Shown here: positions 6,760 through 61,006 of the stretch, piece by piece
Layout: every line of letters starts with the position of its first letter
Position numbering within the stretch: the first letter of the stretch is position 1
Assembly: GCA_951406725.2 (NCBI GenBank)
Contig: OX597828.1
Coordinates: 76,074,001-76,138,000 of the forward strand
From: Octopus vulgaris
Taxonomy: Eukaryota
Direction of reading: 5' to 3'
DNA length: 64,000 nucleotides
The notes under the pieces: generated by a model
Databases searched by the model: none
What the model was told of the DNA's origin: nothing
What the model saw: the letters and a program-made list of their open reading frames with translations, nothing else
Program-made: the position numbers and the translations under genes

Positions 6760-7182
6760 GTATCGGAAACTAATCCCAATAGATTAAGGTTCCTATCATA
6801 TAACTCCAAAATTAGAAACACCACTTACCAGTGCAAAATTTCTGCTGGATCCGATGTCTACCTCTATATAGGGGCAACCTCCTCGAAATTAGCCACAAGG
6901 ATATCAAATCATTTTTCCACGTTTCGTGATAACAGTAAACAGCACGCCACAGGGCTAAGCAAATTAGTCTGGCGTTTGAAGAACGCAAATTCAACTTTTA
7001 AGCTGGAATGGTCAATATTATCAGTGTCCTTACCGTTTGATAAGGGCAGAAAAATCTGTGCCCTCTGTAATTCCGAACTCTTTCATATTCTGTTTGCCCG
7101 AGGCCAAGTAATAAACTCGATTGTCGAACGATCTTTCAGATGCCTTCACTGGAAAAAGCATACCTTTCACTCATACCAATGA
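6760..7182 (+). pseudogene. GIY-YIG endonuclease C-terminus of a Penelope-like element
   Basis: Read upstream of the listed ORF in the same frame: NTTYQCKISAGSDVYLYIGATSSKLATRISNHFSTFR..TGLSKLVWRLK..EWSIL..CALCNSE..RCLH; stop at 6757. Confidence 0.85.
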
Positions 7183-16324: not shown

Positions 16325-17135
16325 CAGTGACTTCCGGCGTTGGGCATGCAATGAATTTCAGAAAAGAGACAGGTTTTAAAAAAAGGGACCTTGTTTAGAA
16401 GGGGGATTTATATACAGTGATGTGATATGTAAAAATATAAAAGTTGGTTATGCGTGCCTATTAAGACGTGTTTTGTATTTTTCAATGAAAAAAGTTTCTT
16501 TATTTAAGCGTTCTTGTTGAGAAATTGCGTCTTTGCACTGGTAGAAAGGGAAGACTGTGAAATTTGGTTTGATGTTACCTGCACATTTTTCTATGTGTTC
16601 ACCGAGAGGAATTTGTCTGTATTGCGGGAAACGGATTTGCTCCTTATGCAGAGTGATTCTCTTCCTCAAAGTTAAACTCGTTTGTCCAATGTAAAAATGA
16701 CTGCAACCCGAGCAGGTTATTACATAAATTAGGTTCTCAGAGGCACAGGTAAAATTGGTTTTAATTGTGAACATCTGTCCTTGTTTGAAAAGGAAATCCG
16801 AGCCGTCAAGCAGGTTGGGGCAGGTGCTACTGTTCGGGCGTCCACATTTTTCAACCGTTGGTTTCGTGGTTGTTTTGTAAAGCTTCGCATTTGTTTGTAG
16901 TCTCTTTAACGATTTGTCTTGTTTCTTGCATTTGATGAGTTTGCGTGTTTTCAGGATGTCGTTCATTTTTGGATCTCTAGTTAGTAAAGGGAGAGTTTGC
17001 ACAATAGTGTTGAATGCCTCACTGTTTCTGGGGTTGTATGTTGATATAAAAAGTAATGTTTTGGTTTGAGGTGTGGTGCTATGTTTTTTTGTTCTTAGTG
17101 TTTTTGTGTCTAATTGTTTGGCACGTTTAATTCCC
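16103..17135 (-). mobile_element. Penelope-like element (Neptune-like, Cys-rich linker), 5'-truncated
   Basis: GIY-YIG ORF 16448-17002 and a decayed hammerhead at 16155-16193 followed by AATAAA. Confidence 0.85.
16448..17002 (-). pseudogene. Penelope-like GIY-YIG endonuclease domain
   Basis: CGRPNSSTCP..FTCASENLIYVITCSGCSHFYIGQTSLTLRKRITLH..RLNKETFFIEKYKTRLN. Confidence 0.9.
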
Positions 17136-37996: not shown

Positions 37997-39030
37997 GGGA
38001 AAAATAATTTCCAAATCAATTAGGTGAAACCCTTCAGCGTTATATGCATCTATATATCGTACTTTGGTGTCTTATTTATCGTATATTTATATATCTATCT
38101 ACAACTATTATAGGATTGGTCTCTACCTATAATACTCCAATTAAGTGTGTACTCTCTTTTTCTAGATTTTAATTCCCATATATATTTACTAAATCCTGTA
38201 GACTTATTTAAATAGCTGTTGATCCAATATAAGCCTTATATATAATTTTATTATTATTGTTCTTAGAGTTAACTATACATTTATAAATTACGTTATTTAT
38301 ATTGCATTTAGTCTTATCACGACACGAACATTTTTCTGCACGTTGATTAAGTCTTCTGTCACTATCGGCCATATTATGGCTAGAGCTATTACTTATTATG
38401 CTATTGTAATAATTATTTAATTTCTTATTTATAGAGGAAATCATATTGCCTGCATTTCTCGGTGTTGAGTATCTCACTCTTATGGTTTTATTGGAAAATA
38501 TATTGTCCTTTTTAAAAACAATTTTTACTATCTTAAGTATCTCCTTAATAATATTAGTCATAACTTGATCCCCATACGGAATAATTAACCATATAATATC
38601 CTTTTTTTATGTTTTTATAATATCCTTATTAGTAGACATCATCGGTATTAAATTGTTATTCTTAGTTATATTACATCTCTTTATGTATACTTTACTATGT
38701 TTCTTACTATTGCTCATATTCTCATTATAATGATTACTATTATTATTGTAAACATTATTAACAAGTATATTGTTTTTATCTTTATTTAGTTTGTTATATT
38801 GTCTTTAATTATTATTATTAATCATATTTTTACTGTTAGAATTATTATTAGTTTTATTAGGAATACTTATAGTATTACTATTACTATTACTATTATTATT
38901 ATTATTATTATTATCGTGTTCATAATAATTAAAAAAATATATATTACAGTTGTATTCTACTTCTTTTAAAGCTTTTTTATAATATGGGGCATGTTTATAA
39001 AAAGTGTCATAATCTGATATACACTACCGT
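37997..39030 (-). mobile_element. Penelope-like element fragment (RT thumb, Asn-rich linker, GIY-YIG), degenerate
   Basis: TFYKHAPYYKKALKEVEYN; KKDIIWLIIPY..TNI; KTIRVRYS; CSCRDKTKC..NVIYKCIV..AYIGST. Confidence 0.82.
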
Positions 39031-44567: not shown

Positions 44568-44604
<37 letters not shown>

Positions 44605-44606
44605 AT

Positions 44607-45068
44607 GTATAAGGATGAAAAGGGACACACGAGTTGATATATATGAAAAAACAAGTCAAGACAGAAAATGCTAAAATAATTTTATAAAGAACATTTCAGT
44701 ACCGGTTTCGGTCATTTGAGACCTTTTCAACTGTAACAATGAAAAAATTCAATTTAGAAAAATTAAAAGAAAAGTTATTTGAAAAGAATATTTGTATAGT
44801 GTTCAAATATAAGTGGCATTTTCCTTGTTTCTGCCTTTCTCTGTCTCTCTTGTTTACTCTTGTGGGTTTAAGGTTCATGTGAATTCTTGGTAGGGAAGAG
44901 GAAGGAGGAGGAGGGGGGAAGGGGAGGAAGAATTTGGGATTGCCTTGATTGTCGTTGGTCTGTGGTGGCTAGCAGTTCCTGCTGTTCAATTCATGAAAAT
45001 ATTTCTATTGAAAGGTTTGTTTATATAATTTGCATAGGTGTTATACTAAAAAGTATTAGTGATAAAGT
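44607..45068 (-). mobile_element. Penelope-like 3' terminus downstream of the MYPT1 copy
   Basis: Contains the hammerhead at 44697-44733, followed by an AT-rich tail ending in a microsatellite. Confidence 0.6.
44697..44733 (-). ncRNA. Minimal type I hammerhead motif, U3-A8 core variant
   Basis: CAG-TTGAAAA-GGTC tcaaat GACC-GAAA-CCGG-TA-CTG. Confidence 0.68.
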
Positions 45069-45129
45069 TAGGAAGAGGAGGGGGGAGAAGAAGAAGAAGA
45101 AGAAGAAGAAGAAGAAGAAGAAGAAGAAA

Positions 45130-45172
<43 letters not shown>

Positions 45173-46081
45173 TAAATAAAACATATGCATATATTTATCT
45201 CTAAGCTTAGCTTGTTTCTTTTTGAGTTCTTCAAGTAAAGAAAGAAGTTCAGTATCAGCAACATCAAAAGCAGTTTGCCCTGCATTGTTTTTTGAGTCCA
45301 TATCACAGAAATGTTCAGCTAATATTTTGCAAGCTCTTTCCTGGCCCCAGTGAGCTGCTGCATGAAGAGGAGTCCAACTATCTGAGTCTTTGATATTTAC
45401 ATTAGCTTTTGCTTGGTTTAATAAATGCATAACTTTCATATAGCCCATTGCTGCTGCTACATGATGAGCAACAGCACCTGTTTTTGCATGAGGCCGCTCT
45501 GTCACACAATCGGAATTTAACCATTGGTTAGCATCAGAAAGCATCATTTCTTCCTCTTCTAGTCGTGCTGCTTCAGCATCCACACCTTGGCGATTCATTT
45601 CTTCTTGAAGCAACTTTTCCATTTTGGCTTCTTCACATATATCAAGAGGAAGATCGCCATCATTGTTAACAGCAGCTATATTGGCACAGGTGCTGATAAG
45701 ATATTGTGCAATGTCATTAAAGCCACATGAAGCTGTAGCATGAAGAGGTGTCCAACCTTCATTATCACAGACATCAACATCAGCACCATTAGCAACAAGA
45801 AACTTCACCATGTCAATTTTGTCATCAATACATGCCTGGTGTAGAGCGGTAAGCCCATCCACATTGGCGGTGTTAATATCTGCTCCTCGAGCCAACAGTT
45901 TTATCACTTCGTCTTTATCTCCACTAGAACACGTTGCTAAAAAGACACAACCATCCTGAAAATTAACTCTTTTAGGTCGGTCTCGAACGCCAATCGATTC
46001 CCTATTTGTATCAGAGTCCGCCCAACGTTTCAATTGTTGGTTCCTTCTTGCACAGGCAGTTGCCTTATTATCATCCGCCAT
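45068..46081 (-). CDS. PPP1R12A: Myosin phosphatase targeting subunit (MYPT1/PPP1R12/Mbs) N-terminal domain; intronless, C-terminally truncated, probable processed retrocopy
   Basis: MyPhoNE motif RNQQLKRW, PP1-docking RVxF (KRVNF), ankyrin repeats (GADINTANVDGLTALHQAC, NEGWTPLHA, WTPLHAAAHWG, GQTAFDVAD), LEELKKKQ. Homology covers 296 codons (46081-45194), then the frame reads through microsatellite to the stop. Confidence 0.9.
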
Positions 46082-46211
46082 GGCAGCAAACTCAAAATAA
46101 TGTTAAGTCTCTTGCGAAATCTCGCCAGTTCACGTCGGAAGCTGTCCAGGGAACGTGTAAGAGAGAGAGAGGGGGAACAGCTAGATACATACATGTATAT
46201 ATACACACATA

Positions 46212-46630
46212 TATGAGTACAGGACACCAAAAAAACGTCGAACACAATGAGAAACGAAAACATAGATACAAACCCAAGGAACTGGGCATTTTTCTTAAAC
46301 AACAAAAAAAAAAAATAGAGTACAGGACAAATAACACAAGGAAAAAACCCCTTCTTCAGGCGCCATGGTTTCATCTACTCTACGTTTCGAAGGTGAAGGC
46401 GAGACGTATCTTCGATAGAAACTTTCCTTCCTGCGAAAAGCAAATCAAATAAAATTTGAGATCTTTTCGCAGAGGGGTAAAAATGGTAACAAAAACAGGA
46501 CAGTAACGACAGTACAAAATAAGCAGTAAAAGACAGGACAAGGCAAATAACAAGACAAGAAGGGCTGTTAAGCCGAACGAAAAAAAGTATTACGAACGCT
46601 ATTTCTGTGGACGGCGAAGGGAGCAAAGAA
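46212..46630 (-). mobile_element. Repeat terminus of probable Penelope-like type upstream of the MYPT1 copy
   Basis: Minus strand has GAAGG..CCTTC-GAAA-CG-TA and a tgcgaaaag/cttttcgca hairpin, with a T-rich tail ending in (TA)n; no intact CUGANGA in register. Confidence 0.4.
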
Positions 46631-47499
46631 AATTGCCGTCAGAGGTGACTCCAGGTCAGCAACGTCACTCGAGCTTATGACAGATTTTGCATACCAGCTC
46701 GAAGAATTTCACGTCTTACCTCAATATCTGTAGCCCCAAACGGCTCCATGTTCATATCTAGCACTATATCTTTCTCCATTTCTAACTTAAGAGTGAAAAT
46801 AAAGCAACCCTGGAAAACGCAACAGATCTTTACACACAGACGCACAGAATAATCGCAATCAAATAACAACAGCGGAGTACATAACAGCGATCTGACTGTT
46901 GCCTGTACTCTTGAGAAGAGAGGCCAGTTAGCCTTTTAAACCTACCAAGCTCGTTCGTATTAGACCGGGTTGCTGGATAATTTTTCGTTTCTTTAAGAAT
47001 ATTATGGACGGAAACATTTTATAGATTGGAATTTACATCCTAATCTCTATGGAAATTAATTGTTTCAAGAAAACATTAAATTTTGCTTACTTTTAATTGT
47101 TACGATTATAATTAACAACTCGGGCTGTAAGTTCTGAGCCTGAGTCTGGCGCGTGTGAACGATGTCGAGAGAACATCTGCTACGAATGATATATTTTGAC
47201 ACAGGGCACCTCTAAGACGACCGCCAGACAATGAACGAAAATAGATAAACTGCATCCGCGCTGAGTAAAAGAAGCACAAGTTATTGGCTACAATTACACA
47301 CTTGAAGTCAGTGTTGGCAGAAATTAAATCAGCTTGAATATACATGTTCCAGTTACTAAAGTTTGTACCTGGAGTCGCCACTGATATATATATATTCAGT
47401 GGTGTCTGCTCGTCGGAGGTCAGGTGTGAGCAGAGATGAAAGGAAGACTTCGAACTTCTGTGTACACACTCATGCCGTAATATTTATGATTTAGTGGCT

Positions 47500-48460
<961 letters not shown>

Positions 48461-57635: not shown

Positions 57636-60576
57636 TATGTTTGACTTTTGCTTTATATTTGTACAAGTTGGCTCCAAGTCTCACCCAGAGACCTCAAGAG
57701 ACAACAGGGTTGGAAGTTCATGTTGTTGTTATGCCTAGTGTGCCATATATTTGGGGGGTGGGGATGTTGTACTAATGAATGTCTAAAAAGAAAAAAAAAA
57801 AGGTTTTTTTTTTTTTTTTTTTTTTAAACCGAAAATTATGTTTGTTTTAAACCTTGAGATTACATAGAGAGTATTTTGCGTAGGATATGAGCAGTTCCCA
57901 TGAGCACTATCTTTTGAACTTCTGCCATTTTTGGGTTTCCTGGTATCTGAGTTAGGTAGCTATCAGCCCCTTTTGCTATCATTCCCAGGGCACCTATGAC
58001 AACAGGTATTGTTTTAGTCTTCAGCTTCCACATTTTGCTGATTTCTATTTCAAGATCTTTATATTTGCTCAGTTTTTGGTAGGTCTTGACAGATACGTTT
58101 ATATCGATTGGGACAGTCATATCAATGAGGAGGCATGTTCTTTGTTTGAAGTTTTTCAATATGATGTCTGGCCTATTTGCATCTATCTTCCTGTCAGTTT
58201 GAATGGTGAAGTTCCAGAGGAGTGAGATGTGGTCATTTTCAAGCACTGGGGGTGGTTTGTGTTCCCACCAGTTTTTTTCATGGGGCAAATCCAGGTTTTT
58301 ACAGATTACCCAGTGAATATATTGTGCAGCTCTATCGTGCCTGTTGAGATACTCTGTAGGCGCTAGAAGACTGCACTTGGAGACCACATGGTCAATGGTT
58401 TCATTTTGTTGCTTGCATACACGACACGTTGGACTGCTTCTGATCTTTAATATGTTGGCCTGGTAGTTTCTTGTTGGTAGGCATTGATCTTGAGCTGCTA
58501 TGATAAACCCCTCTGTTTCAGATTTTAAGCCAGAGGCCATTAGCCATTGATGGGTCAGGGCTTTGTCGATATCTGCATTATTCGCTCTCTTTGGGTATTT
58601 GCCATAGAGAGGTTTTTCTTGCCATTTATTATTCAGAATATCTAAGGCCGCAGTTTTGGCACGGGTTTTCATGCGCCTAGCTTTTTCTGTGCTTGTTTCT
58701 TGTATATCTATCTCTAATTCCGAAATTGGTTGTATTCGGAATTCACTTAGATATTCCTTTGCCTGTTTTGTGACTGAGTATGATGCTTTCTTGTTTTCAT
58801 GTTTTGAGACAAGTTTTAGCATCCAGTCCTCAGAGTTTTTCAGGTAGGTGTCTAGGCCAATTGTAGCAATCTTCATTGTTATTGCCAGTTGCAAAAGACC
58901 ACGGCCTCCCTCTTTTCTTGGCAGATAGAGTCGTTCTGTATCTGCCTTAGGGTGGTGCATTCTATGCATTGTCAACAGTTTCCTTATTTTTCTGTCGAGC
59001 TGACATATTTCAGTAATTGACCAGTTAACAATATTGAAACTGTAAGTCACGACTGGTATAGCTAATGCATTGATTGCTTCGATCCTGTTTCTTGCATTCA
59101 GCTCTGTCTTGAGTATTGCTCTCACTCTTCGATAGCATTCTCTCCTGATCCTTTCCTTCATCTCTGAATGCCTTATTCCGTTCCCTTCAATTATCCCTAG
59201 GTACTTGTAGCTCTCCGCTGGGTCTAGTTCTTTTATGACATTCTGTTGGTCAAGGTTAACGTTAGATGTTTCTGTCATTTTTCCTTTGATAAAGGTAGCC
59301 TTTGCACATTTATCGAGGCCGAATTGCATTCTGATGTCGTCACTGAATTGTTTGACTATCGCTAGTAAGCCCTTGAGTTGTTGATCATTTTTTGCAAAAG
59401 CTTTAAATCATCCATGTAAACGAGATGATTTATATTTTTATCAAACATTTTATACCCGTACTGCGCGTCATTGAGCAGCTTTGAGAGAGGTATTAAGGAT
59501 AAACAAAAGAGGAGTGGTGACAGTGAGTCACCCTGGAAAATGCCACACGAAATTTTTACATCACCAGCATTTAGGAATTCACTGTCACTGTTCAGAGTTA
59601 GTGTGGTTCTCCATGATCTCATACTTACAGTCAAGAAGTTTCGCAGAGTTGGTGCTATCTTATACATTTCAAGGCATTTTCTAATCCAGCTATGTGGTAG
59701 GCTATCAAAAGCCTTTTTATAGTCTATCCAGGCTATTGATAAGTTTTTGTGTCGTTTGTGACAATCTTCTAAGATCATCTTATTGATGAGTAGTTGGTCT
59801 TTACAGCCGTAGGATCCACGTTTACATCATTTCTGTTCATTAGGGAATATGCTGCTGTCTGTTAAAAAACTATAGGTATATTCCGTCAGGACAGATGTTA
59901 GTGTTTTGTACATAGTTGTTAAGCAAGTTATGGGTCTATAGTTTTTTGGTTCATTTGTTTCTTCACTTTTTGGAAGCAGGAATGTTAACCCATTAACTAG
60001 CCAAGGAGGCATCCTACTAGGGTGTTGCAAAACATCATTGTACAGTTCTGTTAGCAGTTCATGGCTCTCTGGGAAGGCATTCAGCCAGAAGTTAGGAATT
60101 TTATCCTTTCCTGGAGACTTCCATTTGCTTGACCTCCTGAGAGCAGATCTTATATCTTCTACCTTGACACCCTCCCACTTTTGCTCTTCTAAGGGGTCCA
60201 GTTCTGTAGATATTCTGTCAATCCAGGGGGCCTTTTCGTTGTGTGTTTTTTCTTCTGCCCAGATTTTATTCCAAAATCTCTGCACTTCTTCTTTTGATGG
60301 TACAGACCCTGCAGTAAACGCTGTTTTTCCTATCTTCCTGTAAAAATTCTTGGTGTTATTTTTGAACATGTTGTTGTCCTTGAAAAATCTAACACGCTTT
60401 TCATACCTCGCTATGCGGGCAGCTTTGGCAGATACCTTTTGTTTGATGGTTTCTATGGTGGCATCAATATCAAGTATAGTTTTCATATTGTATTTTTTCA
60501 GTAATTTTTGGGTTTTTGTAGGTTTGGTAATCTTGTGAGCCTTAAGGTTTTTCAAATATTCAATGTAAGATCTAAA

Positions 60577-60577
<1 letters not shown>
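57636..60577 (-). mobile_element. Dong/R4-clade non-LTR retrotransposon, 5'-truncated, 2.9 kb
   Basis: RT, CCHC knuckle, RLE and 3' UTR; (TAA)n at both junctions. Confidence 0.95.
57860..60577 (-). pseudogene. Reverse transcriptase / restriction-like endonuclease ORF, disrupted
   Basis: [84 protein letters not shown]. One nonsense codon (59827) and one frameshift (about 59395) join the three listed ORFs. Confidence 0.95.
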
Positions 60578-60635
<58 letters not shown>

Positions 60636-60643
<8 letters not shown>

Positions 60644-61006
60644 TCTTCATTAGCGAAGGCGAGAGTATTGTTTGTTTGTTTGTCCGTGGTGAACAAGATA
60701 TCTCAAGAACTGCCGGATGGATTTGGATGAAATTTTTATGGATGTTTGACCTCGTAAATCTCATGAACTGAGTAGAATTTAGGTTCGATCTGGTACCGGA
60801 CCAGGGCTCTGGAATATTTTTCCGTTCTTCAAAAATTTTATTTATTTTTATATTTTTGCTTAATTTTTGAGATCGGTCGGGTTTATTTTTAGTATTCTCG
60901 TTTATGAGAGCAGTCGAGTTTATTTCAGATATTCTCATTTAAAAAAATCATCTCTGGCTAATCGTTGAGAGGATGTTGGTACTGCCTTGGCAGAAGTTAG
61001 CGCTCT
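60636..61006 (+). mobile_element. Non-autonomous Helentron (HINE/DINE-1-like) or Crypton-like element
   Basis: Starts ttattacctc, has a (gttt)n-gtcc tract and gatatctcaagaac..ggatggatttggatgaaattt, ends ccttggcagaagttagcgctct. Confidence 0.55.

Follow-up and report, generated by a model that had tools for sequence, protein, structure and literature searches.

A spliced, 3'-truncated MYPT1 mRNA copy inside a Penelope-like repeat terminus of Octopus vulgaris and its possible origin by template switching

The window, as we call the whole 64,000-nt stretch that was analysed, comes from Octopus vulgaris (GenBank assembly GCA_951406725.2, contig OX597828.1, positions 76,074,001 to 76,138,000 of the forward strand). 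It contains, on the minus strand at 45194..46189, a processed copy of the PPP1R12A/MYPT1 mRNA, which comprises a 108-nt 5' UTR, exons 1-6 and the first 12 nt of exon 7 (codons 1-296). Alignment to the parent places the start codon ATG at 46081 and the exon joins at 45836/5, 45705/4, 45586/5, 45426/5, 45281/0 and 45206/5. The exons of the parent gene PPP1R12A are spread over ~210 kb at G000:C2:39.05-39.26 Mb; all six joins in the copy are precise and the introns have been removed, as in processed pseudogenes. The frame 46081-45068 (-) encodes ankyrin repeats, and PPP1R12A-named proteins of O. vulgaris and O. sinensis are 95% identical to it over residues 1-295. Its open reading includes KRVNF, which we take to be an RVxF-like motif. 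Residues 7-294 align with 1s70_B (299 aa), the solved N-terminal fragment of MYPT1, and with the break at codon 296 the copy encodes nearly exactly the PP1-binding N-terminal module of MYPT1.

The retrocopy differs from its parent by 20 substitutions in 996 nt (2.0%) and zero indels. Fourteen changes are replacements, three are silent and three lie in the UTR, as expected without selection; L206H and G235S hit conserved ankyrin residues, and the frame is still open. Judged by these changes, the retrocopy is likely a neutrally decaying pseudogene. At two sites the window shares its letter with an older sister copy and with O. bimaculoides, so that ~18 changes are private to the retrocopy, which is likely older than those two changes in the parent. 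The substitutions are rich in transversions (13 vs 7 transitions, compared with 19 vs 30 in the sister copy on C18), the numbers being small. Contigs with window-specific letters across exon joins were found in run X1 and in run X2, the latter from a second organism; an assembly artefact is therefore excluded. None of these contigs spanned the junctions of the copy.

The retrocopy is held inside a repeat of its own orientation, family B, whose copies define the flanks on both sides. Its body, at 46216..46640 (-), is a 5'-truncated copy of a non-coding, PLE-like (Penelope-like element) tandem repeat with a unit of ~840 nt. Among 3,444 genomic candidates, the best 40 were scored and showed 94-97% identity. 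In 29/29 nearest copies, B is followed by a conserved TA-rich segment of ~80 nt with point variants. In the window the first 26 nt of this segment, ending in TGTA (46190..46215, -), precede the mRNA and its last 26 nt, the normal 3' end of B (45168..45193, -), follow it, whereas the middle is missing; the distance between these two parts in B termini is most often 28 nt (28/49 measurable termini, range 15-34). Both halves carry letters of the same subfamily, a concordance seen in 57/59 intact termini of a sample enriched for this subfamily, and 47/59 termini end at the same junction with (TA)n as the right part in the window. The two TA-rich flanks are thus halves of one B end, and it is the normal 3' end of B, not the mRNA, that forms the junction with (TA)n. 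The true (TA)n tract begins only at about 45167 (45130..45167); it is likely the insertion target of B, the 3' ends of which run into TA in most copies, and also forms the 5' flank of a second element, family A. The first-pass annotation had recognised the upstream PLE-like terminus, which is the co-oriented terminus of B, and had placed the capture in a (TA)n tract, where the flanks are in fact B terminal segment (46215-46190 and 45193-45168).

Copies of B form partial head-to-tail tandems and lack both poly(A) and a long frame; their 3' end is constant and lies in TA, and their 5' ends are scattered, 12/30 lying directly after TA runs under a strict rule. This layout suggests that B inserts in the manner of non-autonomous PLEs. 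The latter, and animal non-LTR retrozymes, as described in PMC8557442 and bioRxiv 10.64898/2026.07.22.740005, are likewise non-coding, arranged in partial head-to-tail tandems and inserted in (TA)n. Unlike the non-LTR retrozymes of these accounts, B has no recognisable hammerhead, with neither an Rfam nor a descriptor match and only a degenerate core-like stretch, and hence was not filed among them. As to an autonomous partner, no GIY-YIG frame was found within 1.5 kb of B loci among the matches listed. The supplements of PMC8557442 list Octopus PLE families, and A or B may be among these.

At the 3' junction, at 45194/45193, the copy reads AGAGATAAA|TATATG, where the parent goes on with ACACCC in mid-exon. 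The copy stops 12 nt into exon 7 without poly(A), and no target-site duplication of at least 4 nt was found at the junction, ~28 nt of B being lost instead; in both respects it departs from a classical LINE retrocopy. The initial description of about 100 nt of 5' UTR and an ATG, without 3' end, poly(A) or target duplication, is borne out by the parent alignment and the junction check. At the 5' junction, TGTA ends the left B part and the same four letters open the mRNA copy, so that TGTA stands twice. Both mRNA breaks are in A+C-rich stretches, each in the top 11% of 25-nt windows, which resembles the start site of the Penelope-like element PAc in a post hoc and weak comparison. An ordinary full-length, poly(A)-tailed LINE retrocopy that later lost its 3' part would agree with the complete 5' end and with the position of the 3' break in a run of four A. 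Nevertheless, the deletion must then have taken out several kb and have reached no more than ~28 nt past the original end; moreover, B has lost sequence instead of showing a duplication, and the C18 copy is 3'-truncated too, so that this origin is very improbable. Exon trapping by a PLE splice acceptor was also considered and rejected: the parent offers no GT donor (ACACCC, mid-exon), and TA, not AG, stands before the resumed B.

A short parent isoform polyadenylated at the break, which would have accounted for the 3' end and had been named beforehand as a refutation of the capture, was searched for and not found. All 20 listed Octopus isoforms measure 864-1083 aa in a search limited to 591-2000 aa, and of 43 matches of 185-590 aa none is from Octopus. 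A single presumed-RNA contig, from 1/4 presumed RNA runs, carries the parent letters at 17/17 listed sites and runs 1,320 nt past the break. Its own start lies ~8 nt inside the 5' end of the copy, in agreement with a copy that is 5'-complete, although a contig gives no proof of a transcript start. Within this one contig from 1/4 presumed RNA runs, no RNA of the retrocopy itself was seen.

The stop at 45068 is not that of the gene, the frame reading through B, (TA)n and (TTC)n into element A. From its repeat copies, A (44607..45128, -) is the 5'-truncated 3' UTR of an endonuclease-bearing PLE, including the internal (TTC)n and a 30-nt optional tail, and it ends at a (TA)n(TG)n tract (44568..44606). 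Family A has 3,048 genomic candidates, and its 3' ends fall into two classes 30 nt apart, at 449 in 10/29 loci and at 478-479 in 16/29. A GIY-YIG-type frame of the same orientation lies upstream in at least 14/29 sister loci (1.5 kb upstream viewed) and is absent from the truncated copy in the window; Pfam GIY-YIG matched one of two A frames tested with E 5e-4, below the cut-off, which is weak support. A further trait of PLEs in A, beside the optional 30-40-nt tail, is a minimal type I hammerhead motif with a U3-A8 core and palindromic helix III (ACCGGT) at 44697..44733 (-). Its cut is predicted between 44700 and 44699. Against Rfam HH9 the motif scored 19.6 bits (E 0.015), below the gathering score of 52; an Rfam scan of the whole window was dominated by microsatellite matches. 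With a hammerhead descriptor, 400 kb of background gave 10 motifs of this kind and shuffled sequence gave 0. As noted at first pass, it lies on the same strand, 335 nt past the read-through stop; the mRNA-derived sequence ends 461 nt before it. Other elements in the window include PLE endonuclease fragments at 16448-17134 (-), 6760-7182 (+) and 38208-38606 (-), the first of which passes Pfam GIY-YIG and is ~50% identical to the family A frame. A little-decayed non-LTR retrotransposon at 57860-60702 (-) has three long frames in succession, of 291, 154 and 515 aa, and a weak zf-RVT match, and an (ATT)204 tract of 96% purity lies at 47848-48460.

It is conceivable that A, B and the mRNA form one cassette, derived from one multi-template run, or that the A hammerhead trims the read-through transcript of the copy. 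All three are co-oriented. In a background sample of 400 kb from 40 fixed places, with ~350 (TA)6+ tracts (706 when strand-counted), a co-oriented hammerhead lies ≤500 nt downstream at 6/706 tracts and one of opposite orientation at 15/706; the low co-oriented count means that the neighbourhood in the window is uncommon. The private changes of A and B, 11/475 vs 5/420, show no difference in age (p 0.31). By all changes from the majority, on the other hand, A is older than B (20/475 vs 6/420 sites, p 0.016), and it has TA flanks of its own. Moreover, B-then-A neighbours without a retrocopy exist elsewhere (L017, L062), no second copy of the whole cassette was found (8/8 candidates scored), and single minimal hammerheads did not cleave in vitro according to PMC4209133, a source in which the variant with U3-A8 core and palindromic helix III is known from PLEs. 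A common origin or a joint transcript of these parts is therefore improbable, and the suggestion that the ribozyme defines the 3' end of the transcript finds no support at a separate, 5'-truncated PLE. The alternative that had been raised alongside it, a shared (TA)n hotspot, fits element A: from its sequence and flanks, A probably inserted earlier than B and independently of it, at one and the same TA hotspot.

Such pile-ups of A and B occur both ways in the genome. B lies within 1.5 kb of 4/29 A loci (3 co-oriented, 1 opposite), where 0.4 would be expected from the two-copy background, and A lies ≤700 nt downstream of 2/63 B ends (1 each way); all of these neighbour loci are without a retrocopy. 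Neighbours of opposite orientation are L074 and L044, and co-oriented A-then-B neighbours are found at L027:714-1924, L042:1501-2230 and L112:1436-2057. At L027 no TA spacer separates A from B; such a direct fusion could record a jump from one PLE-type RNA to a different one, and it counts in favour of template switching at the retrocopy. A retrozyme-like arrangement is seen at L189, where a different family contributes three near-identical hammerhead motifs with U3-A8 core to a stretch of 10 kb: two form a tandem with a spacing of 362 nt, and the third is inverted.

A second, independent MYPT1 retrocopy is located at L002:1501-2890 (G000:C18:55.687 Mb); it is 6.9% from the parent and hence older. 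Its sequence runs from the last part of exon 1 into a later exon, in the middle of which it breaks off without poly(A). It starts right after ~26 TA units, and these follow a terminus of a third family, C, which bears a hammerhead and has the same orientation as the copy. A layout of this kind was seen at 10/706 strand-counted tracts of the background. This copy was not selected for its flanks and so supports a link of retrocopies to PLE-type sites. Its C terminus looks younger than the copy itself (7/209 changes, 3.3%, vs 49/708, 6.9%; p 0.07), which argues for a later arrival of C and against co-insertion at C18. Exons that some annotated isoforms contain are skipped in the C18 copy, and a SINE-like insert of ~190 nt interrupts it.

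Young processed pseudogenes were sought more widely, with limited sensitivity, and none were found from TCTP, RPL3, chaperonins, Ras or kinases. The Ras survey scored the best 150 of 229 candidates, with 9 intronless loci checked for TA runs alone; the kinase survey scored the best 135 of 749 candidates, of which 30 loci were read. A chaperonin candidate (L142) proved to be a real exon. No A, B or C sequence was present in 100 kb of the 3' region of the parent. That region holds an 80-nt piece (L234, query 1846-1925) which is 99% identical to many genomic copies (862 candidates) and ends in TAT repeats; its sequence suggests the 3' part of a young LINE, inserted in sense orientation downstream of the stop of the parent. 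This repeat swamped the search for classical 3'-end retrocopies of the parent, in which the best 40 of 862 candidates were scored.

From the anatomy of the locus, the ~28-nt loss, the orientation and the similar divergence of B and the copy, we infer the enzyme and the order of events. Taken over its two variants jointly, the involvement of Penelope-type machinery is plausible and somewhat more probable than any origin without it. The variant that we favour, tentatively and at rather less than an even chance, is a single event in which a reverse transcriptase of PLE type left B RNA for MYPT1 mRNA and then returned. The enzyme would cut the (TA)n target and start on B RNA at the usual B 3' end, jump after ~26 nt of B into the mRNA at an internal site of exon 7, and then copy to the mRNA 5' end. 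It would return to B RNA, probably via the shared TGTA, and stop 450 nt later. A single run of this kind, with two changes of template, would account for the absence of poly(A) and of a target duplication as well as for the complete 5' end, and no coincidence of place and age would be needed. The ages do agree: the B copy in the window differs from the majority of the 29 nearest copies at 6/420 sites (5 private) and the retrocopy carries ~18/996 private changes (Fisher p 0.82), with a wide error. This equality counts for co-insertion, since an older host B would be expected had the mRNA come later. The retrocopy and B are co-oriented, and B has 2 copies in the 400 kb of background as against ~350 (TA)6+ tracts, so that a random TA-targeted insertion into a B end should be rare. 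The internal priming by a microsatellite-targeting Penelope-like reverse transcriptase that the first-pass annotation had envisaged survives in part: PLE machinery is plausible, given that B inserts in PLE fashion and the C18 copy adjoins a PLE-like end, whereas direct priming in the microsatellite is set aside.

Several observations weigh against the template switch. TGTA is doubled at the 5' junction, where a clean microhomology jump would leave one. Inspection by eye of 30/33 and 15/15 broken-terminus pattern matches, with 130-700 nt of flank, gave no further mRNA capture in B ends. B ends also take later insertions, SINEs being present at 2/30 pattern-selected loci and a 70-nt foreign patch at one (L082, L104, L091); at L091 the patch replaces a few letters of the terminal segment. 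PLE-like elements cluster anyway, B has no recognisable hammerhead, and no autonomous partner was found for it. In a corrected form of the first-pass model there would be two steps: B was already in place, a PLE endonuclease cut both strands of its TA-rich end, and the PLE reverse transcriptase, acting in trans, began at an internal site of the host mRNA, ~28 nt of the target being lost. PAc is described as cutting AT-rich DNA on both strands, including its own terminal repeat, and as starting internally (PMC11167929); the clustering of PLE-like ends, and the C18 copy, which needs no co-insertion, also agree with such a course. We nevertheless consider it rather unlikely, because B is not older than the retrocopy and the age match would have to be chance; in addition, the enzyme needed its own RNA-binding region in vitro according to PMC11167929, and the 3' region of the parent holds none of A, B or C.

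Instead, a B copy already in place might have suffered a double-strand break in its TA-rich, fragile end, and cDNA or RNA made by a reverse transcriptase of any kind, such as that of a LINE, might have served to close it. The absence of duplication and poly(A), the small loss and the short microhomology are marks of class 2 templated insertions and of endonuclease-independent L1 insertions as reported in PMC5110952 and PMC1920257; the same marks fit the template switch. LINE frames in the window and the patch at L091 would likewise suit a repair. This account does not predict that 2/2 MYPT1 copies abut co-oriented PLE-like ends (background ~1.4% per tract, one copy having been selected for it), nor the age match, nor that the copy reaches the 5' end. 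Experimental patches measure 73-414 bp in PMC5110952, as against 996 nt here, and unlike the class 2 cases of these reports the insert is co-oriented within a retroelement end of the same apparent age. A repair patch is accordingly an unlikely origin.

Template switching has precedents among LINEs, where chimeras such as U6/L1 join two RNAs in the same orientation with poly(A) and target duplications, usually through one switch. The present locus would need two switches with a return to the same repeat. The mobilisation of host genes by PLEs in Adineta vaga is described with introns kept, whole terminal repeats and an 8-bp target duplication (Arkhipova et al., 2013, PMC3846280). As in that account, host sequence in the window is framed by Penelope-type terminal-repeat sequence and would have been moved in trans; unlike there, the cargo is spliced and 3'-truncated, lies inside one terminal segment and comes with ~28 nt lost and no duplication. 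PAc is reported to use an AT-rich target and, in vitro, to start internally on RNA without target homology (PMC11167929); an AT-rich target is found in the present case too, an internal start is what we propose for it, and the optional 30-40-nt tail is seen in family A. The internal start described for PAc concerns the RNA of the element itself, whereas our proposal extends it to host mRNA and adds template jumping. Mobilisation of host genes by PLEs and tailless repair patches are known, and for a spliced mRNA inside a PLE-like terminus no report appeared in the literature searched; the mechanism is the part that we infer.

The present basis is one pseudogene and one weaker sister case. At this locus the passages from element end to mRNA and on to element end are fixed to the base and could be reconstructed in the in vitro assay that has been published. 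The locus bears on how PLEs finish insertion and on whether the PLE enzyme acts on host mRNAs. As a tentative generalisation, possible though doubtful, Penelope-type reverse transcriptases may capture spliced host mRNAs by an internal jump-in and then jump back onto their own non-autonomous RNAs. If this is true, PLE-rich genomes would gain tailless, 5'-complete gene copies that are missed by surveys based on poly(A) or duplications, and a single N-terminal module could be cut out, here the whole PP1-binding ankyrin part of MYPT1. If it is general, retrocopy counts in PLE-rich animals would be underestimated and biased, and 5'-complete fragments would be raw material for truncated regulators.
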